Assembly: GCF_016863655.1 (NCBI RefSeq)
Contig: NZ_BOPH01000083.1
Location: forward strand, 29,901 to 93,900
Length of the DNA: 64,000 bases
Origin: Virgisporangium ochraceum
GTDB lineage: Bacteria > Actinomycetota > Actinomycetes > Mycobacteriales > Micromonosporaceae
Direction of reading: 5' to 3'
In this document: positions 2,764 through 60,313 of the stretch, piece by piece
Layout: every line of letters starts with the position of its first letter
Position numbering within the stretch: position 1 is the first letter of the stretch
Notes under the pieces: model-generated
The model's database searches: none
The model's input: only the letters and a program-made list of their open reading frames with translations
Told to the model about the DNA's origin: nothing
Program-made: the position numbers and the translations under genes

Positions 2764-3708
2764 GTGGATCTGGACGTCACCGCCGCCCGGCTCGGGGTCC
2801 CCGTCGACGAGGTCGACCGCGTGCACCGGCTCGCCGGCGACCTGCCCTCGGCGCCGCTGCCCGACCGGGCCGACGCGCCCGCGATCCTCGACCGGCTCGC
2901 GGTGCGGCCCGACGACGCCGCCGAGATCATGGCGGGCTGGCCCGACCGCGACTCTCCACTGTGGACGCCCGAGCTGCGGTGGCTGCTCGACCGCTCGACC
3001 GCCCTCGTGGGCGCCGATCTCGGCGGCCACGGCTGGCTGACGCCCGGCCCGGAGCTGCCCCGCGACCGCGGCCCGGCCTGGCGGCACTTCTACGTGTACG
3101 CGTACCTGGCGCTGACCGACGTCGTCCGCGGGTACCACCGCGACCACGGCATCGGCGACGCGGTCACCTGGACGACGCTGGCCGACCTCGGCCGCAACCT
3201 CGCGGTCGACCGGCGGATGAACGGCGAGGGCTGGCCGGTCATGCAGGCCTGGCTGAGCCTGCACTGGCGCGGCGCCGTCTACGAGCTGGGCCGGTTGCAG
3301 CACCACCGCGGCGACGCCGACCTCGGCCTGCACATCCCCGAGTCCGGACCGATGACCCCCGAGGCGGTCACGGCCTCGCTCGACGCCGCCCGCGCGTTCT
3401 TCCCGCGCCACTTCCCCGACGAGCACTACACGCACTTCTCCTGCGGCTCCTGGCTGCTCGACCCGCAGCTGCGGGAGTACCTGCCCGGAGACTCCAACAT
3501 CATCCGGTTCCAGGACCGGTTCGAGCTCAAGCCCTACCAGGAGCCCGAAGGGATCGACTGCGACGTCGAGGTGCTGCGGTTCGTGTTCCGCACCCTGACG
3601 ACGCCGCTCGACCAGCTACCCCGCCGCACCGTTCTCCAGCGGGCGGTCATCGACCACCTGAAGGCCGGCCGCCACTGGCAATGGCGGCACGGCCGCTTCC
3701 CCATGTGA
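2764..3708 (+). CDS. acyltransferase-domain (GNAT-like C-terminal fold) protein, function unknown
   Basis: This is the C-terminal part of ORF 1690..3708; the N-terminal 350 aa of that ORF is Arg/Ala-rich frame artefact. Plausible GTG start at 2764. Conserved-looking motifs include HIPESGPMTPEAV, FFPRHFPDEHYTHFSCGSWLLDPQLREYLP and SNIIRFQDRF. The family assignment is from memory and of low certainty. Confidence 0.5.
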   Translation: MDLDVTAARLGVPVDEVDRVHRLAGDLPSAPLPDRADAPAILDRLAVRPDDAAEIMAGWPDRDSPLWTPELRWLLDRSTALVGADLGGHGWLTPGPELPRDRGPAWRHFYVYAYLALTDVVRGYHRDHGIGDAVTWTTLADLGRNLAVDRRMNGEGWPVMQAWLSLHWRGAVYELGRLQHHRGDADLGLHIPESGPMTPEAVTASLDAARAFFPRHFPDEHYTHFSCGSWLLDPQLREYLPGDSNIIRFQDRFELKPYQEPEGIDCDVEVLRFVFRTLTTPLDQLPRRTVLQRAVIDHLKAGRHWQWRHGRFPM

Positions 3709-4954
3709 CACCCAGCCGGGCGACCTCGGCGGTGTCGCCGCCGCGGGTGGCCAGCTCCAGGTGGTCGGCCACGATGCGCAGCGGGTCGGGCAGCCAGCCC
3801 GACCGCGTCGTCCAGTTCCGGAGGACCTCGGCGCAGCCCGTCTCCCGGCCCGCGAGCGCGCCGAGCACCTGCTCGCGGCGCAGCTGCTCCGGGTCGTGCG
3901 ACAGCGGTTGGAGGCGGCCGGACCGGAGGCCCACGTGGTGGGTCGACCCGCCGCAGTCGACCGCGATCCGCTCCGGCACCCGCGCACCCGGCGGCCGGGT
4001 GTGCGGCTCGTCGGCCCGGTCGGGGAACAACGCCCCGCGTACCAGGGGATGCAGCTCCCCGGGCGGCATCGCCCCGATCCGCAGCGGGCCCATGAACCAC
4101 CGGTCGGAGACGGCCTCGCCCGGCAGGTCCGGTGCCGCCGGCGGCCGGTCGTCGGCCACGTGCAGCAGCGGTTGCCGCCCGGGCCGCAGCGTCAGCGCGA
4201 GCCCGGCGTACACGTGCGGCTCGCGCTCCACGCGGCGCACGACCCCGACGGTGCCGGCGTCGGCGCCCAGCAGGTCGCGGGCGACCGCGACCAGGTAGCT
4301 CCAGCGGACCCCGCGCACGGCGCACTCCGCCAGGATCTCCGCGACGCCCGGGCCGAGGTCGACGCCGGCGGCCCGCCACGCGGTGCGCCAGGTGCGGTCG
4401 TGCCCGGACAGGTCGTGGGGCAGCCGGCACTCCCATTCGGTGAGTGCCGCCCGGTCGCCCGCCGGCGGATCCGCGCCGGGCAGTTCGTCCTCGCCCAGCC
4501 GCCGGCCGTCACGGTGGAAGAACGGCGTGCGGTCGGCGCCTCCCACCTGGACGCGGAACCGGTCGACGTGCCGGACGTCCCACAGGCACCGGCTGAGGTG
4601 CCTACCCGGCAGGGGCGGCGCCGGGTCGACGGCGAGGATCAGCCGCGGCGCGGGGTCGGCGACCGGTGGCGTCGTGACGACGAGCGCGCGGGCCGGCCCG
4701 TCGGTGGCGAGCACCGTCGGGGTGACGGACCGCAGCCGCAGGTCGGCGTCGAACAGGTGCCACCGGACGAGGTCGGGCGCGAGGTGCCGGAGGTCGTCAG
4801 CGAACCGGTCGGCCGCGTCGCCGGTCACCGACGGATGGACCTCGACGCGGGCCGCCGCGCACGCGCCGCGCCAGTCGCCGGCGAGCCGCCGTTCGGTGGC
4901 GGCGCGTACCATGGCGGGGCTCAGGTCGTACCGGCGCCAGATGCCCCACCCCAT
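3647..4954 (-). CDS. hypothetical protein (435 aa), family not recognised
   Basis: Full ORF with an ATG start (MGWGIWRRYDL...), diverse composition and no low-complexity tail. Its 3' end overlaps the convergent gene 2764..3708 by about 60 bp. Confidence 0.5.
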   Translation of the reverse strand: MGWGIWRRYDLSPAMVRAATERRLAGDWRGACAAARVEVHPSVTGDAADRFADDLRHLAPDLVRWHLFDADLRLRSVTPTVLATDGPARALVVTTPPVADPAPRLILAVDPAPPLPGRHLSRCLWDVRHVDRFRVQVGGADRTPFFHRDGRRLGEDELPGADPPAGDRAALTEWECRLPHDLSGHDRTWRTAWRAAGVDLGPGVAEILAECAVRGVRWSYLVAVARDLLGADAGTVGVVRRVEREPHVYAGLALTLRPGRQPLLHVADDRPPAAPDLPGEAVSDRWFMGPLRIGAMPPGELHPLVRGALFPDRADEPHTRPPGARVPERIAVDCGGSTHHVGLRSGRLQPLSHDPEQLRREQVLGALAGRETGCAEVLRNWTTRSGWLPDPLRIVADHLELATRGGDTAEVARLGVTWGSGRAAIASGGRPSGGR

Positions 4955-4963
4955 ACCGGAACG

Positions 4964-5476
4964 CTAACCACCGGCGACAACCGGCAACGCACGCTGCATG
5001 AGCACCGTGTCGACCCAGCGGCCGTGCTTGTGCCCGACGGCGGTGAGCCGGCCGGCGTTGGCGAACCCGAGCCGCCGGTGCAGGGCGGCCGACGCGTCGC
5101 TGCCGGTGTCGGCGATGACGGCCACGACCTGCCGCATCCCGGCCGCCGCGCACCCGTCGAGCACCGCCGCCAGGAGCGCCCGGCCGAGGCCGCGGCCGGT
5201 GAAGCCGGGCGCGAGGTACACCGAGTCCTCCACCGTGTGCCGGTACGCCGGCTTGGGCCGCCACGGGCCGGCGTACGCGTACCCGGCCACCTCGCCGTCG
5301 ACGGTCGCGACCAGGAACGGCAGGCCGCGCGCGGCGAGGTCGTCGTGCCGGGCCCGCCAGTCGGCCACGGTCGGCGGGGTCTCCTCGAACGTCACCACCG
5401 TGTCGGTGACGTAGTGCGCGTAGATGCGGGCGACGGCCCCGAGATCGGCGGGGGCCGCGGGCGAGATGACCGGCAT
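4964..5476 (-). CDS. GNAT family N-acetyltransferase (phosphinothricin-acetyltransferase-like)
   Basis: C-terminal 170 aa of the artefactual 1220-aa ORF 4964..8626, with the ATG at MPVISPAAPADLGAVARIYAHYV. GNAT core motifs present: VATVDGEVAGYAY, RGLGRALLAAVL and RLGF. Confidence 0.8.
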   Translation of the reverse strand: MPVISPAAPADLGAVARIYAHYVTDTVVTFEETPPTVADWRARHDDLAARGLPFLVATVDGEVAGYAYAGPWRPKPAYRHTVEDSVYLAPGFTGRGLGRALLAAVLDGCAAAGMRQVVAVIADTGSDASAALHRRLGFANAGRLTAVGHKHGRWVDTVLMQRALPVVAGG

Positions 5477-5527
5477 ACGACGTCCATCCGTTTCCTCTAT
5501 AGCGGAACGAGGGCCTATTATAGTGAA

Positions 5528-6094: not shown

Positions 6095-6121
6095 GCCGGC
6101 TCCTACGCCTACGATCGTCGG

Positions 6122-9094
6122 GTGCACGGGGATCAGCGACGGCCCTGGCCGCTTCTGCTCGCGGCCGTGCTCCTGCTCGCGCTGGGAGCCGGGGTCGCGT
6201 GGGGCGTGGGCGACACGCTCGCGCTCACGTCGGCTCCCGCGGCGGTGCCCGTCGAGCGCACGGCCGCGGCGCCGGTCACCCCGATGGTGCCGGCGCCCGC
6301 GTTCGCGGCCGTCGTGGTGACCGGGGACAGACGCGTGACGCTCGCGGCCGAGGCGGTGGCCGACGCCCTGGTGCGACGCGGCCTGCCCCGTCCGGCGGTC
6401 GTACCGGCCGCGACCGTCGCACCGGTGCTCCGGGTCTCGCTGACGCCGGCGGTCGCCGGAGCCGAGGCGTACCGGGTCGTCGACGCCGCCGACGGGCTCA
6501 CCGTGGAGGCGTCCGGACCGGCGGGCGCGGCGGCCGGGCTCTACGCGGTGGCCGACCGGATCCGGTCGGGCCGGGCGATCGAGCGCGGATCCGTGGTGAC
6601 GCCCCGCCTCGGGCTGCGGCTCACCGACGCCGGGTCGGTCGGCCGCGAGCCCGACGCGGCCGCGTTCGCCGCGGGTACCGACTACTCGCTCAACACCGAC
6701 ATCGTCGGCGGCGCGCTGCTGCCGCGGGCGCCGTGGGTCGACGCGGCCGCCGTCGAACGGATCGCGGCCGACTTCCGCCGGTTCGTCGAGCACGCGCTGG
6801 CCCGCGGGTACAACGGGGTCGTCGTGCCGGGCTTCCTCGAGTACGTCACGTTCCGCGGCGTCGACGGCGTGTACCCGGCGGGCGACGACCACGTCGCGCG
6901 GGCCGAGGCGCTCGCCGCCGCGTTCGCACCCGTCTACCGGTACGCCGCCGACCTCGGCATGAGGGTGTACATGCTCACCGACATGCTCGCGGTCTCGCCG
7001 CCGCTCGAGCGGTACCTCGACCCGCTCGACGTCACCAGCCCGCGGCTGTGGTCGGTGTACCGGGCGGGTCTCGCGGAGCTGTTCGACCGGATGCCGTTCC
7101 TCAGTGGACTGATGGTGCGCATCGGCGAGGGCGGCGAGGTGTACGCGCAGGGCGGCTGGGACTACTCGTCCAAGCTCGTGGTCACCACCGGGGACGCGGT
7201 ACGCGCGATGCTGCGGGCGTTCCTGGCGACCGCCGGCGAGAAGGACAAGGACATCATCTTCCGCACCTGGACCGTCGGCGTCGGCGCCGTCGGCGACCTG
7301 CACACCAGTCCCCGGTCCTACGAGAGCGTGCTCGGCGGCATCGACGACCCGCACCTGGTCGTGTCGACCAAGTACACCAACGGCGACTTCTACAGCCATC
7401 TGCCGTTCAACACGACCCTCGGCACCGGCCGGCACCGGCGCATCGTGGAGTTCCAGGCGCGGCGGGAGTTCGAGGCGTTCGGCTCGTTGCCCAACGACCT
7501 CACCGACCTGCACCGGCAGGCGCTGCTGCACGCGCTGGAGCGCAACCCGCACATCGAGGGCGTCTGGACGTGGACGCAGGACGGCGGGCCGCTGCGCGCC
7601 GGTCCCATGACGCTCTATCTCCGGACCGGTTTCTGGCAGCTGTACGACCTGAACGTGTACGCGCTCGGCCGGCTCGCGTGGCGACCCGACAGCGAGCCCG
7701 CGGCGGTGACCGCCGACTGGGCGCGGCAGACGTTCTCCGACGACGACCGGACGGTCGCGGCGGTGACGGAGGTGATGGCGTCCTCGCGCGAAGCGGTGAC
7801 GAAGGGCCTCTACATCGCCCCGTACGCCGACCGGTCGGTGCGCGCGCTCGGCCTCGAACCGCCGCCGATGATGTGGATCTTCGAGTGGGACATCGTCACC
7901 GGCGACTCCGCCGCCCTCGACAGCATCTACGCGATCAGCCGCGGCCGGGTCGACGAGGCGGTCGCCGACGGCGACCGCGCGGTCGCGCTCGCCACCCGCA
8001 TGCGCGAGACGCTCGCCGCCACCGACCCGGCCGCCTGGCGCGATCCCGTTCTGCGCCAACGGTTCCAGGACACCCTCACGTACCAGGCGGACCTGTTCAC
8101 CGCGCTCGGCGCGTACCGCACCACGGTGCTGAGGCACGCCGAGTGGCTCGACACCGGCGACGCGCGCGCCCGTGACGGGTGGCGGGCGGCCGAGCGCCGG
8201 TACCGCGCCGCGCGCGCGTCCCATCTCGCGCGCTACCAAGGGAATCTCGACTTCCCCGCGTTCAACTTCACCGCCGCCGACCTGGGCGCCGCGCGGGCCG
8301 ACCGCGACCCGGCGATGGCGTGGCTGGCGCGGATCCTGCTCGCGGCGGTCGTCGCGGTCCTGGCCGTCGGGGCGCGCCGGCGTCCACTGTGGACACGAGC
8401 ACTGTGGACCGCGGTGAGCAGACCGTGGCGCCTCGCGGCCCTGCCGGCGCCGGCCCGACGGCTCGACCGGGTCCTCGTGTGGCTCGTCCCGGCGGCGGTG
8501 CTGGTGGCCGTCCGCGGGGTGCACACGTGGTTCGCGGCACCGGCGCACCTGCTGGTGACGCTCGGCGCGTGGCTGCTCTTCGCGGTCGTCGTGCGGCTCG
8601 CGGTGCGGCGCGCCGACCCGTTCCACCTGTGGGCCGCGGTCGGCGGCGTGATCCTGCTGCGCGCCGTGATCGTGCTGGTGGCGTTGGTGGCGCGGGGTCC
8701 CGGCCGCTACTGGTTCAACGTCTGGACCGACCCGGCGGCCCGCTTCCTGTACGTGACCGTCGCGTTCGCGGCGTTCGCGTGGCTGTTCGTGGTCACCGCG
8801 CTCGTCCTGCGCGACCGGTACGGCCTCAGCCGGCGCCGGGTGGCGGGAACGCTGCTGTGCGCGGCGGGGGTCCCGCTCGCGGTGCTGGGTGGGCTGGTCG
8901 CCGCGGTCGGCCTGGAACGCGCGCTCACGGTCTGGAACGACCAGCTCGCGCTGCTGCCGTGGGGCCTGTCGCGGATCCTCGGGATCACGGTGTACCTCGG
9001 CATCCCCTCCGGCCTGGCGACCTGGACGGCGACGGCCGGGGCCGTCCTCGTGGCGGCGGGTGTCCTCCTGCGCCCACGCCGGGCGAGCGCCTGA
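6122..9094 (+). CDS. large membrane-anchored protein: N-terminal signal anchor, ~600-aa extracytoplasmic glycoside-hydrolase-like (TIM-barrel-type) region, C-terminal polytopic (7-9 TM) domain
   Basis: ORF 6122..9094 with a GTG start. N-terminal hydrophobic segment PWPLLLAAVLLLALGAG. The central region has GH-like features: GYNGVVVPGFLEYVTF, IVEFQARREFEAF, MMWIFEWDIVTGD, NGDFYSHLPFNTT. The last ~300 aa are strongly hydrophobic helices. It is likely co-transcribed with the upstream XRE-cupin regulator across a 27-bp gap. Confidence 0.7.
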   Translation: MHGDQRRPWPLLLAAVLLLALGAGVAWGVGDTLALTSAPAAVPVERTAAAPVTPMVPAPAFAAVVVTGDRRVTLAAEAVADALVRRGLPRPAVVPAATVAPVLRVSLTPAVAGAEAYRVVDAADGLTVEASGPAGAAAGLYAVADRIRSGRAIERGSVVTPRLGLRLTDAGSVGREPDAAAFAAGTDYSLNTDIVGGALLPRAPWVDAAAVERIAADFRRFVEHALARGYNGVVVPGFLEYVTFRGVDGVYPAGDDHVARAEALAAAFAPVYRYAADLGMRVYMLTDMLAVSPPLERYLDPLDVTSPRLWSVYRAGLAELFDRMPFLSGLMVRIGEGGEVYAQGGWDYSSKLVVTTGDAVRAMLRAFLATAGEKDKDIIFRTWTVGVGAVGDLHTSPRSYESVLGGIDDPHLVVSTKYTNGDFYSHLPFNTTLGTGRHRRIVEFQARREFEAFGSLPNDLTDLHRQALLHALERNPHIEGVWTWTQDGGPLRAGPMTLYLRTGFWQLYDLNVYALGRLAWRPDSEPAAVTADWARQTFSDDDRTVAAVTEVMASSREAVTKGLYIAPYADRSVRALGLEPPPMMWIFEWDIVTGDSAALDSIYAISRGRVDEAVADGDRAVALATRMRETLAATDPAAWRDPVLRQRFQDTLTYQADLFTALGAYRTTVLRHAEWLDTGDARARDGWRAAERRYRAARASHLARYQGNLDFPAFNFTAADLGAARADRDPAMAWLARILLAAVVAVLAVGARRRPLWTRALWTAVSRPWRLAALPAPARRLDRVLVWLVPAAVLVAVRGVHTWFAAPAHLLVTLGAWLLFAVVVRLAVRRADPFHLWAAVGGVILLRAVIVLVALVARGPGRYWFNVWTDPAARFLYVTVAFAAFAWLFVVTALVLRDRYGLSRRRVAGTLLCAAGVPLAVLGGLVAAVGLERALTVWNDQLALLPWGLSRILGITVYLGIPSGLATWTATAGAVLVAAGVLLRPRRASA
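8382..8394. repeat. 13-bp perfect palindrome GTCCACTGTGGAC (copy 1), followed 6 bp later by a second CACTGTGGAC half-site (8400-8409)
   Basis: Read directly from the sequence. Intragenic, within the 990-aa membrane protein gene. Confidence 0.6.
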
Positions 9095-9100
9095 CGCGCG

Positions 9101-9811
9101 TCACGCCCAGACACCGGCGGTGGCGACCCCGACCGCGAGAAACGGGCCGAACGCCAGCCTGCTCCCCCTCGCGAGCCGACCGGACGCGAGCCCGACCAGG
9201 GCGACCACCGCACCGAGCACGGTGGCCACCGCGAGTGCCAGCAGCGCGCCGGGCCACCCGAGCACGATGCCGGCGAACACGCCGAGCTTGGCGTCGCCCA
9301 GCCCCACCCACCGCCCCCGCGACGCCAGGTGCAGCATCGCGTGGAGCCCGCCGAGCAGCGCCACCCCGAGGGCCGTACCGGTGGGATCCCGCTGGCGCAC
9401 CACCGCCTCCACGAGCGCGACGGCGACCAGGGGCAGCACGACCCGGTCCGGGAGCCGGCCCCAGCGGGCGTCGTACACGGCGAGGCCGGCGAGGGCGACC
9501 AGGTATCCCAGCCACAGCACCAGCGCGGCGGTCCCGTCCGTAAAGCGGAGGAAGGACACCGCGAACGCGACCGCCAGCCCCGCCTCGACCACCGGGGCCC
9601 ACGCCCCCACCGGGGCGCCGCAGTGCCGGCACCGTCCACACAGGACGATCCAGCTGACCACCGGTACGAGGTCGCGGACCCCGAGCCGGCTCCCGCAGGT
9701 CTCGCACCGGGACCGGCCGCGCACGACGTCGCCGCCGGTGTGCAGCCGCCATACCAGGGCGTCGAGGAAGCTGCCCAGGGCCGCTCCCAGGACGCCCAGG
9801 TAGACGACCAC
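9101..9811 (-). CDS. prepilin peptidase (A24 family, PilD/TadV-like)
   Basis: N-terminal tetracysteine motif (CETCGSRLGVRDLVPVVSWIVLCGRCRHCGAPV), the catalytic DAKLG segment and multiple TM helices. No pilin, flp or tad genes lie nearby. Confidence 0.8.
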   Translation of the reverse strand: MVVYLGVLGAALGSFLDALVWRLHTGGDVVRGRSRCETCGSRLGVRDLVPVVSWIVLCGRCRHCGAPVGAWAPVVEAGLAVAFAVSFLRFTDGTAALVLWLGYLVALAGLAVYDARWGRLPDRVVLPLVAVALVEAVVRQRDPTGTALGVALLGGLHAMLHLASRGRWVGLGDAKLGVFAGIVLGWPGALLALAVATVLGAVVALVGLASGRLARGSRLAFGPFLAVGVATAGVWA

Positions 9812-21519: not shown

Positions 21520-21936
21520 GTGACCAAGATCCTCCTCTCGGTTCACGTGCTCGCGGCGATCCTTACGGTCGGTCCGGTGACCGTGGCCGCCAGCATGTTC
21601 CCGGCCGTCGCGCGCCGCGGCGACGCCGCCGCCCTGCGCACGTTGCACCGCATCTGCCGCGTCTACGCGGCACTCGGCATCGTGGTTCCGGTGTTCGGCC
21701 TGGCGACCGCGGGCAGCCTCGGTGTGCTCGGCGACGCGTGGCTGATCACCTCGATCGCGTTGACCGCGGCGGCCGCGGGTGTGCTCGTGCTGCTCCTGCT
21801 CCCCCGGCAGGCGCGGGTGCTCGCGGACGGGCCGCCGGACCGGTCGCTGCCCGTGTGGACCGGCACGTTCAACCTGCTGTGGGCGGTGGTCACCGTGCTG
21901 ATGATCGTCCGCCCCGGCTCGACGACGGGGGCGTGA
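21520..21936 (+). CDS. small integral membrane protein (DUF2269-like)
   Basis: Full ORF with four hydrophobic helices. The stop overlaps the next start (ATGA). Confidence 0.6.
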   Translation: MTKILLSVHVLAAILTVGPVTVAASMFPAVARRGDAAALRTLHRICRVYAALGIVVPVFGLATAGSLGVLGDAWLITSIALTAAAAGVLVLLLLPRQARVLADGPPDRSLPVWTGTFNLLWAVVTVLMIVRPGSTTGA

Positions 21937-23369: not shown

Positions 23370-26046
<2,677 letters not shown>

Positions 26047-32968: not shown

Positions 32969-35900
32969 CGGGGGGCACGTCGACGACGGTCGGGCCGGAC
33001 ACGGGTGCCTACGCGGTGCTCCGTGCCCGGCTCGCCCGGCACGGCCGGGATCTGGCGAAGGCCGCGGAGAAGCTCGACGCTCAAAGAGCGACCACGTTCG
33101 CGTCAACCGCGCTGCGCGTGCTCGGATTGGAACGTGTCCGAACCCCGGCACCGACCGTCGCGCGGGATGTGGTCTGGGTAGGCGGCAGACTCGTCGTCGG
33201 CTTCGAGGGGACGCTCGCCGCGTACACGTTCCACCGCGAGGGCGAGACGTTCCACCTCACGCCGTCGGGCGCGGCGTGGCTGCGCGACGAGCGGCTGCAC
33301 GCCGACCTCGCCGAGCTGTTCCGGTACCACCGGCACACCCGGCTGCTCCGGCTGCGCGTGTTCGACGACCGGCTGCTGGCGACGTTCCAGGTCGGCCCGC
33401 GCCCCACCGACATCCGGGTGCTGCGGTGGGCGGTCGCGGCCGACGGCTCGGTGTCCTATGTGGACAACCAGGGTGAGCGGGAGCGCGCGGCGCCGCCGCC
33501 GGCCGACGTCGGATGGACGCCCGCCGGCCGGGAGGACCAGGTGCTGGTCGACCGGCGGCCGGTGCTCCTCGTCGACGGCGCCATACACGTGTCGACCACC
33601 GGTGGTGCGCTGACCGTCACGCCGGCTGACGACCGGGACCCGGTCTTCAGCGAGCCGGTCGACGAGCCGTTGCAGAGCCTCGCGGACGCCGACGTGGCGT
33701 ACGCCCGCGTCGGTGCGCTGGTGCTGCTGCGGGTGCGGCCCTACCGCGAGGAGTCCGACCGGTACCTCGCCTACAACACCCACACCCGCGAGGTCGTGCG
33801 CCTCGACGGGCTCGGCCGCGCCGTCCGGCGCCTTCCCGACGACCGCGGCGTCGTCTTCCCCGGCGGCTACTGCCTCAGCGCCGGCCCGGCCCGCGGGTTC
33901 GACGTCGACGACGAGGGGATGGAGTTCGAGCGCGTCGTGCGGCCGGCGGGCGGTGCCGACCTGCTGTACGTGTTCCACGCCCGGACCACTGGACGCTCGT
34001 TGCTGGTGCCCTACGACGTGGTGCGCGACGAGGTGGTCGCGCCGATCGAGGGCACCGGCCACGCGCTGACCGACGACGGCATCCTGCTGGTGCTGAAGGA
34101 CTCCGGCGCTGAGCCGACCCGCACGCACACCGTGCAGGCGTGGCACACCCCGTACGTCGACGAGGCCGCCGGCCCGGCCGGCGAGGGTCCGCTGGCGCGC
34201 ATCGGCAACGCCGACCTCGTCCGCGCGGTCTCCGACTGTCTGGCGCTGGCCCGGTCGGCGCGCGACGTTCCGGAGTCCACGGCGGCGATCGAGGCGCTCG
34301 CGGCCGCCGGCAACCGGCTGCTCGACCGGCACCACTGGCTCGGCGACGCGGCGCTCGCCGAGGCCGGCGTAGGCGATCTCCGTACGCCGGTCGCGGCCGT
34401 CCGCGACGCGGCCGTGCGGCTGCTGGACGAGTACGAGCGGACCCGGGTGGCCGTCGCCGCCTCCCGTGCGGCGGAGGACGAGGCCGCCGAGCAGGTGACG
34501 GCGCTCGTGCGGCGGGCCGAGGGCGAGCGGCCGGACAGCACGGCCGGCTGGGTCGGGCGGCTGGCCGAGCTGCGGGCGGCGCACGGTCTCCTCGCGGGCG
34601 TCCGCGAGCGGCCGCACGTCCGTCCACAGAGGATCGACGACCTGGCCGCGGCGCTCGACGCGGCCACCGCCGACGCGGGCCGGCGGGCCGTGGAGTTCCT
34701 CGCGGCGCCGGACGCGTTCGCGCCGTACCACGCGCGGCTCGACGGTCTCGACGCGGCCGCGCGCGAGGTCGCCACGGGCGCTGACGCCGACGCCTTCGCC
34801 GAGCGCCTCACCGCGGAGGTCGACGCCCTGCGCGCGGTGACCGACGTCGTCGGGACCCTGGACGCCGCTGACACGGGGCAGCGGGCCCGGATCCTGGAGC
34901 AGGTCGGCACCGTCCTGGGTGGACTGAACCGGACCCGCGCGACGCTGGACGCGCGGGTCCGGGAGGTCCGCTCGGCCGAGAGCCGGGCGGCGTTCGCCGC
35001 CGAGTCGACGCTGCTGCAGCAGTCGGTGACGGCCGCTCTCGCGCTGGCCGACACACCGCGGCGGTGCGACGCCGAGGTCGCCTCGCTCCTGGTACGGCTG
35101 GAGGACCTGGAGGCGCGGTTCGGCAGCAACGACTGGTTTGTCGCCGGGGGAGGCGACGAAGAGGACCAGCAGGCCACGCTGGCGGCCACCCGCGCCGCGG
35201 TCACCGACGCGTTCGCGGCCCGCAAGCAGGCGCTGCTCGACGAGCGGGCGCGCCGCGTCGACCGGGTCGCCGCGTCGTGCGAGCGGGTCTTCGCGGCCAT
35301 CGCGCACCGCTCTGCCGCGCTGTCCACAGTGGAGGAGGTGCGTGCGTACTTCGCCGGCGACCCGCTCGTCGGCCGCCTGCGCGCGCTCGCCGAGGAGCTG
35401 CGCGGGCTCGACGAGCCGGTGCGGGCCGTCGACGTGGCCGCCCGTCTGGTCGCCGCCCGCCAGGACGCCAACCGCACGGTCCGCGACCGGGCCGACCTGT
35501 ACGACGACGGCGGCGCGACGATCCGGCTGGGCGCGCACCGGTTCGCGGTCACCACGGAGCCGGTCGAGGTCGCGGTGCTCCCCCACGGCGACGACCTCGC
35601 CGTCACGGTCACCGGCACCGGCTACCGCCGCCCGGTCCGTGACGACGGGCTCGCCACGACGCGGCGGTTCTGGGACCGGCCCGTGGTGTCCGAGTCGCCG
35701 ACGGTGTACCGGGGCGAGTACCTCGCCGCGTCCCTGCTCCCCGCCTGCGGGCCGGGCACGGACCTCGCCGCGCTCGTCCGGGAGGCCGCCGCGGCCCGGC
35801 ACGACGAGGGGTACGTGACGGGCGTGCACGACCACGACGCCACCGCGATCCTCGGCGCGCTCGTCGACGCGCGCGCCGCCGCCGGCCTGCTGCGGTACCC

Positions 35901-37668
35901 GCCCGACGCGCGTGCCGCCGCCCAGCTCTACTGGGGCCTGGCCGACCCCGACCCGCGGCTGGCCCACCGGGCGGCGGCCCTGGTGCGCGCCCGCGACACC
36001 GTCGGCGCGGTCGAGGCGGTGCGCGCGTTCGCCGACGACCTGCGCGTGGCGGCACACCGGTTCCTCGCGGACGCGGGGCTGCCCACCGGCGGCGACCTCG
36101 TCGGCGAGTACCTGGTGGAGGAGCTCGCGACCGGACCGTCGTTTGTGGCCAGCGTCGAGGCGCTCGACCTTCTCGAGCGCTTCCGCGCGGACCACGGCGA
36201 CGTGGTCGACCCCGACGACGGTCCCGGCGCCCGGCACCAGATCGCGTCGGCGTGGCTCACCGGGCTCGGCCCGTTCGTCCCCGAGGCGGTGGCGATGCTG
36301 GTGTGCGACGTCGAGCGCGTCCGCGTCGACGCGCCCGTCGTGTCCACAGTGGAGGGTCTGCTCGGCGCGCACCCCCGCGTCGTCGACGGCCGGCTGGAGT
36401 TCCGGCTCGACGACCTGCTCGCCCGCACCCGGGAGCACGAGGTTCACGAGGTGCCGGCCTACCGCGCGTACCGGTCCGCCCGTGCCGAACTGGTCGAGCG
36501 CGAGCGCGACCGGCTGCGCATCGACGAGCACCGGCCGGCGGTGCCGGACTCGTTCGTCCGCAACCGGCTCATCGACGAGGTGTACCTGCCGCTGATCGGT
36601 GACAACCTCGCCCGCCAGCTCGGTACCACCGACCCGGCCGGCGCCACCGAGCGGTCCGGACTACTCGTTCTCGTCTCCCCACCCGGGTACGGCAAGACGA
36701 CGCTCGTCGAGTACGTGGCGAGCCGGCTGGGTCTGCTCCTGGTCACCGTGAACGGTCCCGCGCTCGGCACCGGCACGACGTCGCTCGACCCCGACGGCGC
36801 CCCCGACGCCGCGGCGCGGCAGGAGGTGGAGAAGATCAACCTGGCGCTGGAGCTCGGCACCAACGTGATGCTCTACATCGACGACATCCAGCACACGTCG
36901 CCGGAGCTGCTGCAGCGGTTCGTCCCGCTGTGCGACGCCGGCCGGCGCATCGAGAGCGTCCGTGACGGGCGCGCGGTCACCGTCGACCTGCGCGGTACGC
37001 GGTTCGCGGTGTGCCTGGCCGGCAACCCGTACACCTCGGCCGGACAGCGGTTCCGGCTGCCCGACATGCTCGCCAACCGCGCCGACGTGCTCGACCTCGG
37101 CGAGGTCCTGTCGGGCCGCGACGACCTGTTCGAGGAGAGCTACCTGGAGAACGCCCGGGCCGCACTGTCCACAGAGGACACATCGGCGCTCCTGACGCAC
37201 GTGCGCGACGTGATGCTCGCGGTCAACCGCGCCTACATCGACTCGGCCGCGCAGACCGACGCCAGCCGCACCGAGCCGCCGTTCCTGCTGCAGGGCTCCT
37301 ACCGCGACATGAACGCGATCGCGCGGCGCGTCCACCCCACCATGGACACGGCCGACGTCGACGCGCTCGTCGACGACCACTACGCCGGCGAGGCGCGGAC
37401 GCTCGGCCCCCACGCCGAGGCGAACCTGCTCAAGCTGGCGCTCCTGCGCGGCGGTCACACGCCGGCGCAGGCGGAGCGGTGGGACCACGTGACAGCGGCC
37501 TACCGCCGCCAGCAGCTGCTGGGCGGCTCCGACGACGACCCGGTCGCCCGGGCGGTGGGCGCCATCACCACCCTGACCGACCGCCTGGAGGCGGCGATCC
37601 TGCGGGCGGCGGCCGTCCCACCACCCAACGGCCACCGTATCTACCTCGAGTCCCTGGGCAGCCCGTGA
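32965..37668 (+). CDS. 1567-aa flotillin-associated protein with C-terminal AAA+ ATPase (MoxR/dynein-related AAA_5-like); annotated in databases, if at all, as a 'DNA repair ATPase'-like protein
   Basis: The start overlaps the flotillin stop (GTGA). There is no Arg/Pro low-complexity anywhere in the 1567 aa. The N-terminal ~420 aa is beta-rich and repetitive, the middle ~700 aa is Ala/Glu/Arg helical, and the C-terminus is an AAA+ domain. AAA+ motifs: Walker A LLVLVSPPGYGKTTLVEY, Walker B VMLYIDDIQH, sensor-1 VCLAGNPYT, Arg finger RFRLPDMLANRADVL. Confidence 0.8.
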   Translation: MTGGTSTTVGPDTGAYAVLRARLARHGRDLAKAAEKLDAQRATTFASTALRVLGLERVRTPAPTVARDVVWVGGRLVVGFEGTLAAYTFHREGETFHLTPSGAAWLRDERLHADLAELFRYHRHTRLLRLRVFDDRLLATFQVGPRPTDIRVLRWAVAADGSVSYVDNQGERERAAPPPADVGWTPAGREDQVLVDRRPVLLVDGAIHVSTTGGALTVTPADDRDPVFSEPVDEPLQSLADADVAYARVGALVLLRVRPYREESDRYLAYNTHTREVVRLDGLGRAVRRLPDDRGVVFPGGYCLSAGPARGFDVDDEGMEFERVVRPAGGADLLYVFHARTTGRSLLVPYDVVRDEVVAPIEGTGHALTDDGILLVLKDSGAEPTRTHTVQAWHTPYVDEAAGPAGEGPLARIGNADLVRAVSDCLALARSARDVPESTAAIEALAAAGNRLLDRHHWLGDAALAEAGVGDLRTPVAAVRDAAVRLLDEYERTRVAVAASRAAEDEAAEQVTALVRRAEGERPDSTAGWVGRLAELRAAHGLLAGVRERPHVRPQRIDDLAAALDAATADAGRRAVEFLAAPDAFAPYHARLDGLDAAAREVATGADADAFAERLTAEVDALRAVTDVVGTLDAADTGQRARILEQVGTVLGGLNRTRATLDARVREVRSAESRAAFAAESTLLQQSVTAALALADTPRRCDAEVASLLVRLEDLEARFGSNDWFVAGGGDEEDQQATLAATRAAVTDAFAARKQALLDERARRVDRVAASCERVFAAIAHRSAALSTVEEVRAYFAGDPLVGRLRALAEELRGLDEPVRAVDVAARLVAARQDANRTVRDRADLYDDGGATIRLGAHRFAVTTEPVEVAVLPHGDDLAVTVTGTGYRRPVRDDGLATTRRFWDRPVVSESPTVYRGEYLAASLLPACGPGTDLAALVREAAAARHDEGYVTGVHDHDATAILGALVDARAAAGLLRYPPDARAAAQLYWGLADPDPRLAHRAAALVRARDTVGAVEAVRAFADDLRVAAHRFLADAGLPTGGDLVGEYLVEELATGPSFVASVEALDLLERFRADHGDVVDPDDGPGARHQIASAWLTGLGPFVPEAVAMLVCDVERVRVDAPVVSTVEGLLGAHPRVVDGRLEFRLDDLLARTREHEVHEVPAYRAYRSARAELVERERDRLRIDEHRPAVPDSFVRNRLIDEVYLPLIGDNLARQLGTTDPAGATERSGLLVLVSPPGYGKTTLVEYVASRLGLLLVTVNGPALGTGTTSLDPDGAPDAAARQEVEKINLALELGTNVMLYIDDIQHTSPELLQRFVPLCDAGRRIESVRDGRAVTVDLRGTRFAVCLAGNPYTSAGQRFRLPDMLANRADVLDLGEVLSGRDDLFEESYLENARAALSTEDTSALLTHVRDVMLAVNRAYIDSAAQTDASRTEPPFLLQGSYRDMNAIARRVHPTMDTADVDALVDDHYAGEARTLGPHAEANLLKLALLRGGHTPAQAERWDHVTAAYRRQQLLGGSDDDPVARAVGAITTLTDRLEAAILRAAAVPPPNGHRIYLESLGSP

Positions 37669-53815: not shown

Positions 53816-55738
53816 TTAGCCGAGCCACCGGTCGAACCAGGACCGCGTGCGGCGCAGCACGTCCAGCTGGTGCGTGCGTTCGCGGATCGGGTGTCCCTCC
53901 CGGGGATACACGACGTACTCGTGCGTCACCCCGAACCGCCGCAGCGCGCGGTGGAGGAACTCCGCCTGCGACAGGGGGACGTTCGTGTCGTTCTCGCCGT
54001 GCAGGATCAGCACCGGCGCCCGGATGCGGGAGGCGTACGAGATCGGGCTGAGCCGGTGGTGCGGGTGCGGACCCGGTCCGTCCCAGCCGTTGCCGCCACC
54101 GAGCGCGGCCTCGAACGGTCCCCATTCGCCGGTCGCGGCGAGCATCCCCCAGTCGCTGATTCCGGCGCCCACCACCGCGGCCCGGAACCGGTCGGTGCGC
54201 GCGACCGCCCACGCGGCCATGAAACCGCCGTGGCTCCACCCGCCGATGCCGAGCCGCCGCGGGTCGGCGACGCCCTCGTCGACGAGCAGGTCGACGCCCG
54301 CGCAGATGTCGCCGAACTCGTCGAGGCCGACGGCTCCGGCGACCCGCGCCGCGAACTCGTGGCCGTATCCGGTGCTGCCACGCGGGTTCGGCAGGAACAC
54401 GGCGTAGCCCACGGCCGCCAGCCACTGCGCCGACGGGTACCAGTCGAGCATGAGCCGGTCGGTGTAGCGGCCGTACGGTCCGCCGTGCACCAGGGTCACG
54501 AGGGGGAACGGCCCGTCGGCGCGGGTCAGCCCGGGCGGCAGCACGAGCAGCCCGTCGAGGTCGAGCCCGTCGGCTGCCTTGTACCGCAGGCGTTCCTGCG
54601 TTCCCCACCGCACGTCACGCAGTTCCGGCCGCAGATCGGTCCGTCGCGTGAGAGGTCCGCGCGTCGGTCCCGCGTAGACGTTCCAGGGTTCGGGTGACGC
54701 GCTGAGCACCGTCGCCACTCGTGCGCCGGGCCGGTCGGCTGTCAGGCTCCTCGCCTCGCCGCGGAGGCGGCAGACCTCGACGAGGCCCGCGTCGAGCCGG
54801 TGCACCGCGGTGTCGAGCCCGTCGGCGACCAGCACGAGCGGCTGTCCACTGTGGACCTGCACCAGCTCCGTCGGGCAGACCGTCGCGCCGGCGGTGAGGA
54901 CGCGGTGCTCCCCCGCCGGCGCGTCGACCGCGACGTCGAGGACGACGGTGCCGCCCACCGGGGCGGTCTGACCGAGGTACGCGAGATGCCAGCCGTCGTC
55001 GGCGTTCCACCAGGCCGGCGACGACGCGTCGAGCGCGGCCGGCCCGAGGTCGCGCACCGCGCCGGTGCGCGGGTCGAAGACGTGCAGCGCCGTGTTCAGC
55101 ATCCCCGGGTCGATCTCGGGGGTCGACCAGGTCAGCACCGCGAGCGGTCCCCCGTCGGGGTGCTCGACGACGTCCACGACGTGCCGGTCGCCGAAGCCGT
55201 CCGGCGTGCGCACCTCGCCCGTCCGCACATCGAGCAGCCGCAACCGGTCCGGGCGGACGTGCTCGCTCCACACCCGGGCGTCGTCACGCTCGTCCCGGCG
55301 CCGTCTGTCCTCAGTGGACGGCTCGTCGGCCGCGAGAAACGCGACGGAGCCGGCGAGCGGACGGTGGCCCGACACCCCGCCGTCCCACGCCGTGACCGCC
55401 GAGACCACGCCGCTGACCGGGTCGACCTGGTGCACCTGGGCGGTTCCCCGCTCCACCCGGTCGGAGAGGAAGTACACGACGGACGAATCGGCGTCCCACC
55501 GCGGCGCCGCGTCGTCCGAGTTGCCCGACGTCAACCGCCTCGGCGTCCCGTCGCTCCCGCTCCCGCCGTCGACCCCGCTGTCGACGGCCACCAGCCACAG
55601 GTCACCGACCGGGTGGTCGCCCACCCGGCCGCAGGCGGCGACGGAGTACACGGCCCACCGGCCGTCCGGCGACAGGGCCACCTCCCGCGGCACCGGACCG
55701 TCGACCACCGCCTCGGCGGCAAGCTGCGTTTCGGTCAC
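53816..55738 (-). CDS. S9-family serine peptidase (prolyl-oligopeptidase/acylaminoacyl-peptidase-like)
   Basis: N-terminal beta-propeller and a C-terminal catalytic domain with GGWSHGG (Ser), the D in ENDTNV and the H in REGHP. Confidence 0.85.
   Translation of the reverse strand: MTETQLAAEAVVDGPVPREVALSPDGRWAVYSVAACGRVGDHPVGDLWLVAVDSGVDGGSGSDGTPRRLTSGNSDDAAPRWDADSSVVYFLSDRVERGTAQVHQVDPVSGVVSAVTAWDGGVSGHRPLAGSVAFLAADEPSTEDRRRRDERDDARVWSEHVRPDRLRLLDVRTGEVRTPDGFGDRHVVDVVEHPDGGPLAVLTWSTPEIDPGMLNTALHVFDPRTGAVRDLGPAALDASSPAWWNADDGWHLAYLGQTAPVGGTVVLDVAVDAPAGEHRVLTAGATVCPTELVQVHSGQPLVLVADGLDTAVHRLDAGLVEVCRLRGEARSLTADRPGARVATVLSASPEPWNVYAGPTRGPLTRRTDLRPELRDVRWGTQERLRYKAADGLDLDGLLVLPPGLTRADGPFPLVTLVHGGPYGRYTDRLMLDWYPSAQWLAAVGYAVFLPNPRGSTGYGHEFAARVAGAVGLDEFGDICAGVDLLVDEGVADPRRLGIGGWSHGGFMAAWAVARTDRFRAAVVGAGISDWGMLAATGEWGPFEAALGGGNGWDGPGPHPHHRLSPISYASRIRAPVLILHGENDTNVPLSQAEFLHRALRRFGVTHEYVVYPREGHPIRERTHQLDVLRRTRSWFDRWLG
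54844..54856. repeat. 13-bp perfect palindrome GTCCACTGTGGAC (copy 2)
   Basis: Read directly from the sequence. Intragenic, within the S9 peptidase gene. Confidence 0.6.
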
Positions 55739-55757
55739 ACCGCACGATAGCGGACCC

Positions 55758-56135: not shown

Positions 56136-56211
56136 CGGCGTCGGTACGGCCGCGGCCGGCGCGGCGGGGAGCAGCGTCGCGGCGCCAACCAGCGTCGGAA
56201 ACCGGACGCAC

Positions 56212-56715
56212 TCAGGTCGACGCCCTCAGCCGTGCCTTGAAGTCGTCGTAGGCCACCTCGACCGGGTGCAGGCCGTCCGTGCTCCCGCTCAGCTCGGACC
56301 GCGGGATGGGCGGCCGTGGCGGCCACCGCCCGGCCGCGCCGGGATCGCCGGCGAGCACGCGCCACGGCGGCGCCAGCCGGATCCCGCTGGTCGCCTCGCC
56401 GAGAAGCACCTCGACGAGCACGGCGTCGGCGGTCAGCCACTTGTGGGTCCCGGCGCCCTTCGACCCGTCGTGCCAGTGGTCCCAGCCGTACAGCGCGCCG
56501 GTCACGCGCAGCCGCTCCCGGTCGCGCCACGCCGCGGCGAACGCTCCCTTGTGGACGCCCACCAGCAGATCGACGTCGCTCACCCCATCGGCCCGGCCGG
56601 ACGCCAACGACCCGATGACGACGACCACCTCGACCCACGGCAACGCCGTCACCCGTTCCCGCAACAGGTCGAGGTACCGCTGCTGCCGCTCGGGCCGACC
56701 CAGTGCCGCCACCAC
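56212..56715 (-). CDS. minimal nucleotidyltransferase-domain protein (MNT/ANT-like)
   Basis: Nucleotidyltransferase-fold motif (VVVIGSLASGRADGVSDVDLLV). Confidence 0.7.
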   Translation of the reverse strand: MVAALGRPERQQRYLDLLRERVTALPWVEVVVVIGSLASGRADGVSDVDLLVGVHKGAFAAAWRDRERLRVTGALYGWDHWHDGSKGAGTHKWLTADAVLVEVLLGEATSGIRLAPPWRVLAGDPGAAGRWPPRPPIPRSELSGSTDGLHPVEVAYDDFKARLRAST

Positions 56716-56719
56716 GCTC

Positions 56720-57199
56720 CTATCTCAGTGCGGTTCGTTCGTCGACCAGCCGGGTGGGTGTGCCGGCGAACAGGTCGGGCCCGGCCGGCCCGTAGGCGAG
56801 GTTGAGGGTGTCGAGGCGGTAGGACCACGCGCCGCCGAGGGCGACCGGCATCGAGAAACGGTAGTTGATGTGCCAGCGGACCCACTCGCCGGCGCGCAGC
56901 CACACCGCCGGCGGGCGGCGACGGCGGTCCGGCATGCCGAAGGTGGCGGGCGTCAGCCGGACCCGCAGCCGGCCGTCGACCTCGGCCAGTGTGACCCGCC
57001 CGCGGTCCGGAAGCGCCGACGCGCAGGTCTCCCGCGGCGCGAAGCCGGTGGCCTCGTCGAGCAGCACCTCGTGCCACAGCGGCAATGGTCCGCGCGGCAC
57101 GGGGAACCCCACCGGCACGGCGTTGCGACGGGCCGCCGCGGCGCCGCCCCGCGAGGCCTTCGTCCACGACGTGCGGACCCACTGCGCGATCACGTCCAT
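56720..57199 (-). CDS. hypothetical protein (partner of the nucleotidyltransferase)
   Basis: C-terminal 159 aa of ORF 56720..57979, from the ATG at MDVIAQWVRTSW. It lies 4 bp upstream of the NTase gene. Confidence 0.45.
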   Translation of the reverse strand: MDVIAQWVRTSWTKASRGGAAAARRNAVPVGFPVPRGPLPLWHEVLLDEATGFAPRETCASALPDRGRVTLAEVDGRLRVRLTPATFGMPDRRRRPPAVWLRAGEWVRWHINYRFSMPVALGGAWSYRLDTLNLAYGPAGPDLFAGTPTRLVDERTALR

Positions 57200-57225
57200 C
57201 CCGCCATCATCGGCCCGGCGCGGCG

Positions 57226-58813: not shown

Positions 58814-58851
58814 GGCGGCACGCTATCATCAGTGCTTCGGAAACAAAAGCA

Positions 58852-59199: not shown

Positions 59200-59277
59200 C
59201 CCGGCCCACTTCCAGCCCAGCCGCCCCCTTACCCGGTCCCCAGACGCGCCGCGCCGCCGCCCCTCACGTGGCGATCG

Positions 59278-59334
59278 ACGACGCTCGATCCAGTGCAGGA
59301 AGCGCGCCGAAAACCACACTGGATCGAGCGTCGT
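59278..59334. terminator. 18-bp perfect inverted repeat (ACGACGCTCGATCCAGTG ... CACTGGATCGAGCGTCGT) with a 21-nt loop, followed by TTTATGT
   Basis: Sits in the 175-bp convergent gap between the HxlR and AraC genes. The following T-rich tract is rare for this genome. Confidence 0.4.
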
Positions 59335-59374
59335 TTATGTAAGCCCGCGGCGCGCGTCAGCCGGCGGCGCCGCG

Positions 59375-60313
59375 TCAGCCGGCGGCGAGTGCCCGGCGGC
59401 GCCATTCGCCCGGGGCGCAGCCGACCTCGCGGCGGAACGCCGCCGCGAACGCCACGTCCGAGGAGTAGCCGACCCGGGCCGCCACCGACGCGACCGTGGC
59501 GCGCTCCGCGCGGAGCAGCGTGCGCGCCCGTTGCATCCGTGCCGCCTGCAGGTACCGGATGACCGGCTCGCCGACCCGCTCGGTGAAGCGGGCCGCGAAC
59601 GCCGCCCGCGACAGGCCGGCCGTGCGCGCCAGCCCGGCGACCGTCCACTGTCGACCGAGGTCGGCGTGCAGGGCACCCAGCGCGGCCGACACATACGGGT
59701 CGCGCAGGCCGGCGAGCCAGCCGGGACGGTCGACGGTCATGGCGTGGTACCGCAGCGCCCGCACGAGCAACGCGTCGGACAGCCGCGCCATCACCAGGTC
59801 GCTGCCCGGCCCGCCCTCGAACGCCTCGGCGCTCAGCGCGTCGATGTACGGACCGAGGCCGCTGCCGCCGGGCACGTGCAGCACGTCGGGCAGTCCGCGC
59901 AGGGCCGGATGCCCGCTCTCGCCTACCAGGAACGCGCCGCACACCACCACGGTGTCCACTGTGGACCCGCCGATGCGCAGCCGCGTGCCGGGCGTCCGCG
60001 CCGCCACCTCGATGCCCGACACCACCGGCCCGGTGCGCGGCGTGGAGCACAGCTCGTGCGCGTCGCCGCCCGGCAGGATCACGAGGTCGCCGGTGTCGAG
60101 CGCGGTCACGGTCCCATTGGCCTGGACCAACGTGCAGCGCCCCCGCGCGACGATGTGGACCCCGCGCACGCCCGCCTGGTCGAACCCGACGCGGAACGGG
60201 GTGCCGAGCTCGAGCCACCGGTACGCGGCGGTCTCGAGGCGGAGTTCCCGCAGCAGCGTGCTGAGGACGTCGACCGGCGGCTGGACGGACGCTGTGGTTT
60301 CCCGGACGGTCAC
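59375..60313 (-). CDS. AraC-family transcriptional regulator (cupin sensor + AraC HTH)
   Basis: C-terminal 312 aa of ORF 59375..60796 with a GTG start. Cupin domain (GDLVILPGGDAHEL) and AraC HTH (LARTAGLSRAAFAARFTERVGEPVIRYL). Confidence 0.8.
   Translation of the reverse strand: MTVRETTASVQPPVDVLSTLLRELRLETAAYRWLELGTPFRVGFDQAGVRGVHIVARGRCTLVQANGTVTALDTGDLVILPGGDAHELCSTPRTGPVVSGIEVAARTPGTRLRIGGSTVDTVVVCGAFLVGESGHPALRGLPDVLHVPGGSGLGPYIDALSAEAFEGGPGSDLVMARLSDALLVRALRYHAMTVDRPGWLAGLRDPYVSAALGALHADLGRQWTVAGLARTAGLSRAAFAARFTERVGEPVIRYLQAARMQRARTLLRAERATVASVAARVGYSSDVAFAAAFRREVGCAPGEWRRRALAAG
59947..59959. repeat. 13-bp perfect palindrome GTCCACTGTGGAC (copy 3)
   Basis: Read directly from the sequence. 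Intragenic, within the AraC regulator gene. Confidence 0.6.

Follow-up and report, generated by a model that had tools for sequence, protein, structure and literature searches.

The window analysed here is a 64-kb stretch of the genome of the actinomycete Virgisporangium ochraceum (contig NZ_BOPH01000083.1, positions 29,901 to 93,900). It has a GC content of 74% and ordinary chromosomal genes, among them katG-furA, two-component systems, transporters and hydrolases, and an Rfam scan of its whole length returned zero families. Scattered through these genes is a 13-bp palindrome, GTCCACWGTGGAC, with the core TCCACWGTGGA (where W is A or T). Among the products of the genes that carry it are an S9 peptidase of 640 aa, a GH67C-like protein of 975 aa and a DUF3686 ATPase of 1567 aa. 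The palindrome is the symmetric, highest-match extreme of a bipartite word, (G)TCC-NN-W-GTGGAC, here called the gapped word. Counts for V. ochraceum refer to the window, while other genomes were sampled as loci of ~20 kb.

Three perfect copies of the palindrome are present, with nine at up to one mismatch and 15 at up to two mismatches. Under the main null, in which synonymous codons are permuted inside each gene so that the proteins and per-gene codon usage are kept, 0.007, 0.23 and 3.2 copies are expected, respectively, and none of 1000 shuffles reached the observed numbers. Dinucleotide shuffles predict 0.01 perfect copies and 0.18 at up to one mismatch, and Markov models of order 1 to 5 predict 0.001 to 0.02 perfect copies. 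The over-representation of the perfect palindrome reported in the initial annotation of this DNA thus holds in the window under dinucleotide, Markov and codon-aware nulls. When all 9- to 13-mers of the window are ranked by the ratio of observed to expected counts, words of the motif come out on top by ~40-fold, and six of the seven CACWGTG heptamers lie inside TCCACWGTGGA.

The gapped word occurs 18 times, at 15 distinct sites (about one site per 4 kb), compared with 4.2 ± 1.6 occurrences expected from synonymous shuffles and 1.7 from dinucleotide shuffles. In the window, 18 of the 29 WGTGGAC heptamers have CC exactly 2 nt upstream (~2.5 per 10 kb). The same arrangement is found for 20 of 31 heptamers in Phytohabitans (three loci; 2.8 per 10 kb) and 31 of 37 in Amycolatopsis (three loci; 4.2 per 10 kb), against 16 of 199 in Streptomyces (53 loci) and 5 of 60 in Nonomuraea (16 loci), with 0.13 per 10 kb in each of these two genera. 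Overall, the gapped word is 10- to 30-fold denser in the loci of Virgisporangium, Phytohabitans and Amycolatopsis than in those of Streptomyces and Nonomuraea (2.3 to 4.2 vs 0.13 per 10 kb). At all other offsets from 0 to 8, CC upstream of WGTGGAC is at background level, GTCC-Nn-GGAC shows a single peak at n=5 in the three enriched genera, and WGTGGAC lacking its CC partner is as dense as in the control taxa. The single arm GTCCACA/TGTGGAC is seen 20 times in the window; eight of these lie within palindromes, and the remaining 12 compare with 12.1 expected. The hexamer GTCCAC is even under-represented (72 observed vs 102 expected). Since lone arms are not enriched, all of the excess resides in the two-armed arrangement, and recognition would require both arms. 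The unit is therefore not the perfect palindrome, as initially assumed, but the broader gapped word, which is also found outside the V. ochraceum genome.

The weaker of the two arms varies by genus: it reads (G)TCC[A/T]C in Virgisporangium, NNCCA[A/C/T] in Phytohabitans and GTCC-NN in Amycolatopsis, and the perfect palindrome is a Virgisporangium speciality. Counted from the side of the full arm, the centre base is preferentially T (15/21 and 14/20 sites), and a purine stands beside the arm in 76 to 80% of sites. Neither the window nor Phytohabitans has a strand skew of asymmetric copies (6 vs 6 and 4 vs 4, respectively) or a coding-strand bias of gapped-word sites. The 15 sites of the window fall mostly into three patches, at 1.3-9.6 kb, 33.4-37.2 kb and 54.8-60 kb. 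For this clustering, P is ~0.01 by gap statistics and 0.035 by a nearest-neighbour test on the nine best copies, which is suggestive but not strong.

All copies of the palindrome are intragenic, as first described, and they lie in unrelated genes (GNAT-like, GH67C-like, DUF3686 AAA ATPase, S9 peptidase and AraC). Two perfect copies stand where the initial annotation placed them, at 8382-8394 and 54844-54856; the third, given there as 59947-59959, was off by 7 and is located at 59954-59966. The copy at 8382-8394 (GTCCACTGTGGAC) encodes PLWT within the GH67C-like gene (6122-9094, plus strand), in a hypervariable linker that follows a transmembrane helix. An arm-only copy on the plus strand, GAGCACTGTGGAC (8397-8409), lies 15 bp downstream and coincides with the family-conserved peptide RALW. 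Positions 8382-8409 hence contain a perfect copy and, 15 bp on, a second CACTGTGGAC, and encode the peptide PLWT-RA-LWT; the 8382 copy is missing from relatives at 84% and 76% identity. The pair looks like a local duplication or extension that may have given rise to a new perfect site. The copy at 54844-54856 lies in the S9 peptidase gene (53816-55738, minus strand), where it encodes VHSG in place of the VD[TAS]G of orthologs and uses the rare codons AGT and GGA. The copy at 59954-59966 encodes STVD with the rare codon ACA in the AraC/Cupin_6 gene (minus strand).

The one-mismatch copies listed initially, at 2954, 35322, 36342, 37167 and 55307, are all present, but the list was incomplete, as that at 59643-59655 had been overlooked. 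The copy at 2954-2966 (CTCCACTGTGGAC, plus strand) encodes SPLWT and begins 25 nt past the putative ATG (2929) of the GNAT-like gene. Three lie in minus orientation in the DUF3686 gene (32965-37668, plus strand): GTCCACAGTGGAG at 35322-35334, which encodes STVE and has the perfect form in the ortholog of a relative (L209, see below); GTCCACAGTGGAG again at 36342-36354, within the conserved peptide xTV[ED]GLLG; and GTCCACAGAGGAC at 37167-37179, which encodes STED. The S9 peptidase gene has a second copy, GTCCTCAGTGGAC, at 55307-55319 (plus strand), whose mismatch preserves the Glu of the conserved PS[AT]ED, and the AraC gene has GTCCACTGTCGAC at 59643-59655 (minus strand), which is conserved in a close relative (L202). 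The claim that the copies fall in different reading frames is correct in that all three frames are seen among the nine copies at up to one mismatch, but it was overstated, as five of the nine use the frame G/TCC/ACW/GTG/GAx (STV[DE] or STED); two others encode PLWT.

The two-mismatch copies reported near 1298, 9634 and 34622 are likewise present, and more occur at 7097, 8397 and 33453. The members of the gapped word beyond those above are GTCCACAGGGGAT (plus-strand reading) at 1298-1310, oriented on the minus strand in a solute-binding-protein gene; TTCCTCAGTGGAC at 7097-7109 (plus strand) in the GH67C-like gene; GTCCACACAGGAC (plus-strand reading) at 9634-9646, oriented on the minus strand in a prepilin-peptidase gene; GTCCTATGTGGAC at 33453-33465 (plus strand) and GTCCACAGAGGAT (plus-strand reading) at 34622-34634 (minus strand), both in the DUF3686 gene; and CTCCCTTGTGGAC at 56544-56556 (plus strand) in a small open reading frame (56212-56724, minus strand). 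The 33453 member encodes SYVD with the rare codon TAT, and the same 13-mer stands at the orthologous place in L209 and in three Amycolatopsis species. The 34622 member uses the rare codons CGT, CCA and AGG and is conserved at 13/13 positions in L209. An isolated TGCCCGTGTGGAC at 21848-21860 (plus strand) fits CCNNWGTGGAC only and may be a chance match. The prepilin-peptidase gene (type IV, A24; 9101-9811), situated between the GH67C-like gene and a two-component system, carries the one site listed above. A different, 10-bp palindrome, TCCGCGCGGA, occurs at 25913, 29810, 36182 and 59505 (four copies vs 0.86 expected; four were reached by 2/100 shuffles); it has TCC...GGA ends like the motif, and its excess may be chance.

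That the motif is kept at the DNA level and not via a shared peptide, as had been proposed, is borne out by the codon-aware shuffles, the rare codons, an Asp-to-His change, the use of both strands and the conservation in relatives. The codons recruited into copies are rare ones for this genome: ACA and ACT make up 2.9% and 0.8% of Thr codons, and AGT accounts for 2.3% of Ser codons, GGA for 7% of Gly codons and CCA for 5% of Pro codons. Six of the 32 ACA codons of the window lie inside copies. Where ~40 orthologs of the S9 peptidase have QVD[TAS]G, the perfect copy gives QVHSG, with Asp replaced by His specifically in this lineage and two rare codons in use, and the mismatch of the 55307 copy falls exactly where the conserved Glu must be encoded. 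Sites are placed by preference at variable or tolerant protein positions, and the dominant frame, N/TCC/NNW/GTG/GAC (10/21, 9/13 and 8/8 sites), costs one non-preferred codon. This pattern of frames and positions is the one described by Findlay and Redfield for uptake sequences in proteomes (PMC2817400). Relative to the gene, the sites of Virgisporangium and Phytohabitans lie on either strand, which argues against a signal acting in mRNA or translation. The protein alignments of the S9 peptidase and of the DUF3686 ATPase contain no insertion or deletion at any site, which shows that the sites arose by substitution and are not inserted elements; around the 8382 site the linker is rich in indels, so that insertion and substitution are not distinguishable there.

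Comparison with relatives indicates that sites are conserved above background 13-mers, although samples are small and P is ~0.01 to 0.04 for each test. L202, a Logan contig of a close relative (~90% nucleotide identity) that is syntenic with the window, has the four sites of the 54.8-60 kb region unchanged (52/52 bases), with P ~0.012 judged from background 13-mers, of which fractions of 0.26 and 0.42 are fully conserved. L209 comes from a more distant relative, whose DUF3686 ortholog is 71% identical at the amino-acid and 78% at the nucleotide level. At this distance, two of five sites are conserved at 13/13 positions and one at 12/13, and a perfect copy is found where V. ochraceum has the one-mismatch copy at 35322. 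The two sites that L209 keeps at 13/13 are two-mismatch copies, rare codons included; two other sites are missing. For three orthologous loci of Amycolatopsis (92% and 89% nucleotide identity), 9/12 and 7/12 sites are conserved at 13/13, whereas full conservation is seen for 41% and 30% of background 13-mers (binomial P ~0.018 and 0.036). In Phytohabitans orthologs, sites are kept while the central W flips between A and T.

The distribution of the word among taxa is patchy. Control DNA consisted of 1.88 Mb from 80 other actinomycete species, in loci centred on the same DUF3686 gene, and contained no perfect copy and no copy of the 11-mer core. The loci of Actinoplanes auranticolor and Micromonospora auratinigra (44 kb) have nothing within two mismatches, which rules out a feature common to all Micromonosporaceae; conversely, the gapped word in Phytohabitans and Amycolatopsis rules out one private to V. 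ochraceum. Two soil-metagenome contigs with a 61%-identical GH67C-like protein, L216 (8 sites in 16 kb) and L217 (6 sites in 16 kb), have the word at the density seen in Amycolatopsis, which shows that further uncultured lineages carry it.

In both V. ochraceum and Amycolatopsis, the gene for the DUF3686/AAA "DNA repair ATPase" (32965-37668 in the window, 10001-14815 in L126 and 1509-6170 in L209) exceeds the DNA around it 4- to 6-fold in sites, with five in V. ochraceum and six, all sharing one frame, in Amycolatopsis. The protein of V. ochraceum has diverged to an unusual degree: its identity is 71% and 65% with the two nearest relatives, which are both uncultured contigs, and ~51% with every other genus. 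Neither the gene nor the one beside it has a hit among the PADLOC defence models or in NCBIfam. No DNA methyltransferase was recognised among the genes of the 64-kb window.

The word is also found on viral contigs. These were chosen using one perfect copy as the seed, so that only sites beyond the seed are counted as extra. The 42 viral contigs with at least 62% GC contain 56 extra sites in 369 kb. A contig pair of ~49% GC, L043/L038, has five copies of (G/A/C)TCC-NN-W-GTGGAC in 9.5 kb, against ~0.15 expected, which shows that the word is not confined to high-GC DNA; the sole match of this pair in INPHARED was a trivial one of 54 nt. On three contigs, 3 to 6 sites are grouped into arrays that span at most 150 bp, and the DNA there lacks coding periodicity. 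In L032 (897-1035), five copies of GAGTTCGGTCCACAGTGG(A/T)CC are packed into 140 bp. L058 (490-665) has six repeats, one of which is a perfect 23-bp palindrome, GTTCGGTCCACAGTGGACCGAAC. In L044 (997-1077), a pair of perfect 13-mers separated by 1 nt shares 81 bp with three lone TGTGGAC arms and one gapped copy, next to AT-rich DNA, an arrangement that looks like an origin. Such tight arrays resemble those of operators, centromeres or iterons, and support binding by a protein. The outer arms of the L032 and L058 arrays, GTTCGG...CCGAAC, are the arms of the 17-bp repeat of Cluster O mycobacteriophages, TGTTCGGNNNCCGAACA (PMC4351075). No match to the arrays was found among INPHARED phages or PLSDB plasmids, and the open reading frames beside them were uninformative. 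A further viral contig, L053, has a 63-bp tandem repeat of at least eight units (466-919) that encodes 21-aa repeats with PLWT(T)(F/Y)V; the CCACTGTGGAC-like words in it would have a peptide-level cause, unrelated to the chromosomal sites.

Among known systems, HIP1 (GCGATCGC), the highly iterated palindrome found in cyanobacteria, comes closest in kind; a function in chromosome structure or another chromosomal role has been argued for it (PMC5861425, PMC4390886). The enrichment of HIP1 is 15- to 300-fold, that of the gapped word 10- to 30-fold over control taxa and that of the perfect form several hundred-fold. Like HIP1, the word is intragenic in all frames, conserved in orthologs beyond codon usage, lineage-restricted and present in taxon-specific variant forms. 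HIP1-type sequences are marked by over-representation of one to two orders of magnitude and by ortholog conservation above background, both of which are found here (the latter in small samples), and uptake sequences by biases of frame and position that lower the coding cost, which are found as well. However, HIP1 is an 8-bp word of Cyanobacteria that occurs about once per kb, whereas the present one spans 13 bp, is odd-centred, has unequal arms, occurs about once per 4 kb and belongs to Actinomycetota. It also forms tight arrays on viral contigs, and no cognate methyltransferase of the HIP1 type is known for it. The sites of MatP (matS), of Noc (Noc-binding sites, NBS), of SlmA (SlmA-binding sites, SBS) and of ParB (parS) are dimer-bound palindromes of 13 to 16 bp, and they too are mostly gene-internal, dispersed and selected at the DNA level. 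The density of perfect copies, one per 21 kb, is about that of matS or of Streptomyces parS inside their domains. The initial comparison with a dispersed, gene-internal site family of matS-, NBS- or HIP1-like general architecture is upheld, although the sequence differs from those of matS, NBS, SBS and parS and the full word is far more abundant. The motif resembles matS (GTGACRNYGTCAC), another 13-mer, in its length and odd centre, but apart from these the two have only the GT...AC ends in common. ParS itself was rejected, as no match to the 16-bp TGTTNCACGTGAAACA occurs in the window at up to three mismatches, and the motif is odd-centred with shorter arms.

Similarities to uptake signal sequences (USS) and DNA uptake sequences (DUS) comprise the frames of preferred codons, the poorly conserved positions and the local change of peptides (PMC2817400); in contrast to the word, uptake sequences are asymmetric, occur about once per kb and are tied to a known competence machinery. 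Both the Cluster O repeat (PMC4351075) and the stoperators of Cluster A phages consist of many short dyad-symmetric copies within and between genes. Those, however, belong to phage genomes and have 3-bp spacers or are asymmetric 13-mers, while the present word, with the core TCCACWGTGGA, is carried mainly by a bacterial chromosome. By sequence or known cognate factor, the word belongs to none of HIP1, matS, NBS, parS and the uptake sequences. Literature searches for the word and its variants returned unrelated primers only, and the literature covered by them contained no description of it.

Several explanations have to be weighed for such a pattern. That the pattern is an artefact, whether of composition, of codon usage, of shared peptides or of mobile-element footprints, can very nearly be dismissed. 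GTC, CAC, GTG and GAC are favoured codons, several copies share short peptides (STV[DE], PLWT) and a few near-copies follow conserved ones (RALW at 8397, PS[AT]ED at 55307, SY[VIM]D at 33453), yet the host proteins are unrelated, and a codon or peptide cause is ruled out by synonymous-codon and codon-order shuffles, which never attain the observed counts, together with the 1.88 Mb of other high-GC actinomycete DNA, which have neither a perfect copy nor an 11-mer core. Repetitive extragenic palindromes, miniature inverted-repeat transposable elements and transposon footprints were rejected, as all copies are intragenic, the S9 and DUF3686 alignments have no indels relative to orthologs (the 8382 site being not judgeable) and the flanks are not conserved. 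The presence of the same sites in two independent sequencing runs speaks against an assembly artefact. That the arms are sites for DnaA, with one or two molecules bound per word, dispersed copies titrating the initiator and the mobile-element arrays acting as origins with DnaA boxes, seems rather improbable. The box TTGTCCACA is documented for S. coelicolor and M. tuberculosis, and the full arm with the centre, GTCCACA, equals its positions 3 to 9 (a 7/9 match; PMC4285127). The preference for a T centre and a purine beside the arm yields Y at box position 2, and about one third of copies fit [T/C][T/C][G/A]TCCAC[A/C]; relaxed DnaA boxes, however, require a CCAC core that the second arm, which keeps GTCC, does not have (PMC3583192). 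The L044 array, in which lone TGTGGAC arms in direct orientation are mixed with palindromes beside AT-rich DNA, is origin-like and counts in favour of DnaA. But the enrichment is confined to the bipartite arrangement: lone arms, TGTCCACA included, are at background once bipartite sites are removed, GTCCAC is under-represented as noted above, and the full 9-mer TTGTCCACA occurs once in the window. Moreover, no enrichment is seen in Streptomyces, which has the same box, nor in Nonomuraea, Actinoplanes auranticolor or M. auratinigra, for which the same box is assumed. The initial description of the palindrome as two overlapping DnaA boxes is accordingly not sustained.

Molecular drive without a structural function is unlikely. 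Here, the word would pile up through biased mismatch repair tied to a modification enzyme, as proposed for HIP1, or through biased uptake or transfer followed by recombination, as for USS and DUS, and genes would accommodate it at the lowest cost. The preference for the cheapest frame and for tolerant positions is as expected from uptake sequences (PMC2817400). Enrichment drops in steps, from ~430-fold for perfect copies to 27-fold at one mismatch and 2-fold at two, the word is patchily distributed among taxa, and viral contigs, presumably of such hosts, also carry it; the type IV prepilin-peptidase gene in the window is a weak hint in the same direction. Efficient conversion has left no sign, however, as one-mismatch copies remain one-mismatch in V. 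ochraceum and a relative, and drive leaves the tight arrays on mobile elements unexplained. Uptake sequences are not palindromic, and natural competence is not known in Virgisporangium, Phytohabitans or Amycolatopsis. A specificity of 13 bp is long for methyltransferase-linked repair, and sites are conserved at orthologous positions, from which Xu et al. argued likewise for selection over replenishment in the case of HIP1 (PMC5861425). The word might instead mark resident DNA for defence or DNA processing, either as a Chi-like signal that tames a nuclease or as a modification target, so that host and phages alike accumulate it. This appears improbable. It would suit the lineage-specific, patchy distribution and the tendency of viral contigs with one copy to carry several (both in the 42 high-GC loci and in the 9.5 kb at 49% GC). 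On the other hand, Chi and the FtsK-orienting polar sequences (KOPS) are strand-skewed, unlike the asymmetric copies, and eleven specified positions are long for Chi or for restriction/modification targets. Nor does the PADLOC result for the motif-rich DUF3686 gene and its neighbour favour a role in defence.

The reading favoured here, held at just short of an even chance, is that (G)TCC-NN-W-GTGGAC represents a predicted site family for a sequence-specific, probably dimeric DNA-binding factor with a chromosome-level role. The factor would contact the two inverted arms, most simply as a dimer. The sites themselves were made by point substitution where the protein tolerates it and are then conserved. 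The absence of a promoter preference and the thousands of sites per genome, if the density holds, make a chromosome-level role likelier than gene regulation; candidate roles are nucleoid organisation, loading or titration of a factor, and marking of resident DNA. The factor would be present in some actinomycete lineages only, and mobile elements would use it, or a relative of it, with tight arrays. A number of points weigh against this proposal. Neutral drive that regenerates the word would yield many of the same patterns, and the unequal arms (one full, one partial), like the lone arms of L044, also fit a monomeric binder such as DnaA. The conservation tests rest on few sites, the clustering of sites in the window is moderately significant (P ~0.01 to 0.03), and no candidate gene for the binding protein was found in the 64-kb window. 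On a broader view, which is possible but clearly more tentative, the word would belong to an undescribed genome-wide site system common to Virgisporangium, Phytohabitans, Amycolatopsis and some uncultured Micromonosporaceae-like lineages. Thousands of gene-internal sites would be kept by selection for a horizontally distributed factor, as an actinomycete counterpart of HIP1 or matS, with the same site used in tight arrays of phages and mobile elements.

Over-represented words kept in genes by selection are rare, and those that are understood (Chi, KOPS, matS, NBS, USS and HIP1) have each exposed some aspect of chromosome biology. The present word is strong, well defined and easily counted, and its patchy occurrence among taxa means that phylogenetic profiling could name the cognate protein, to which the viral arrays offer a second route. 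It also comes at a measurable cost, in that a signal at the DNA level overrides codon preference and even conserved residues. As Amycolatopsis species are antibiotic producers, a genome-wide site system in these bacteria could matter for strain engineering.

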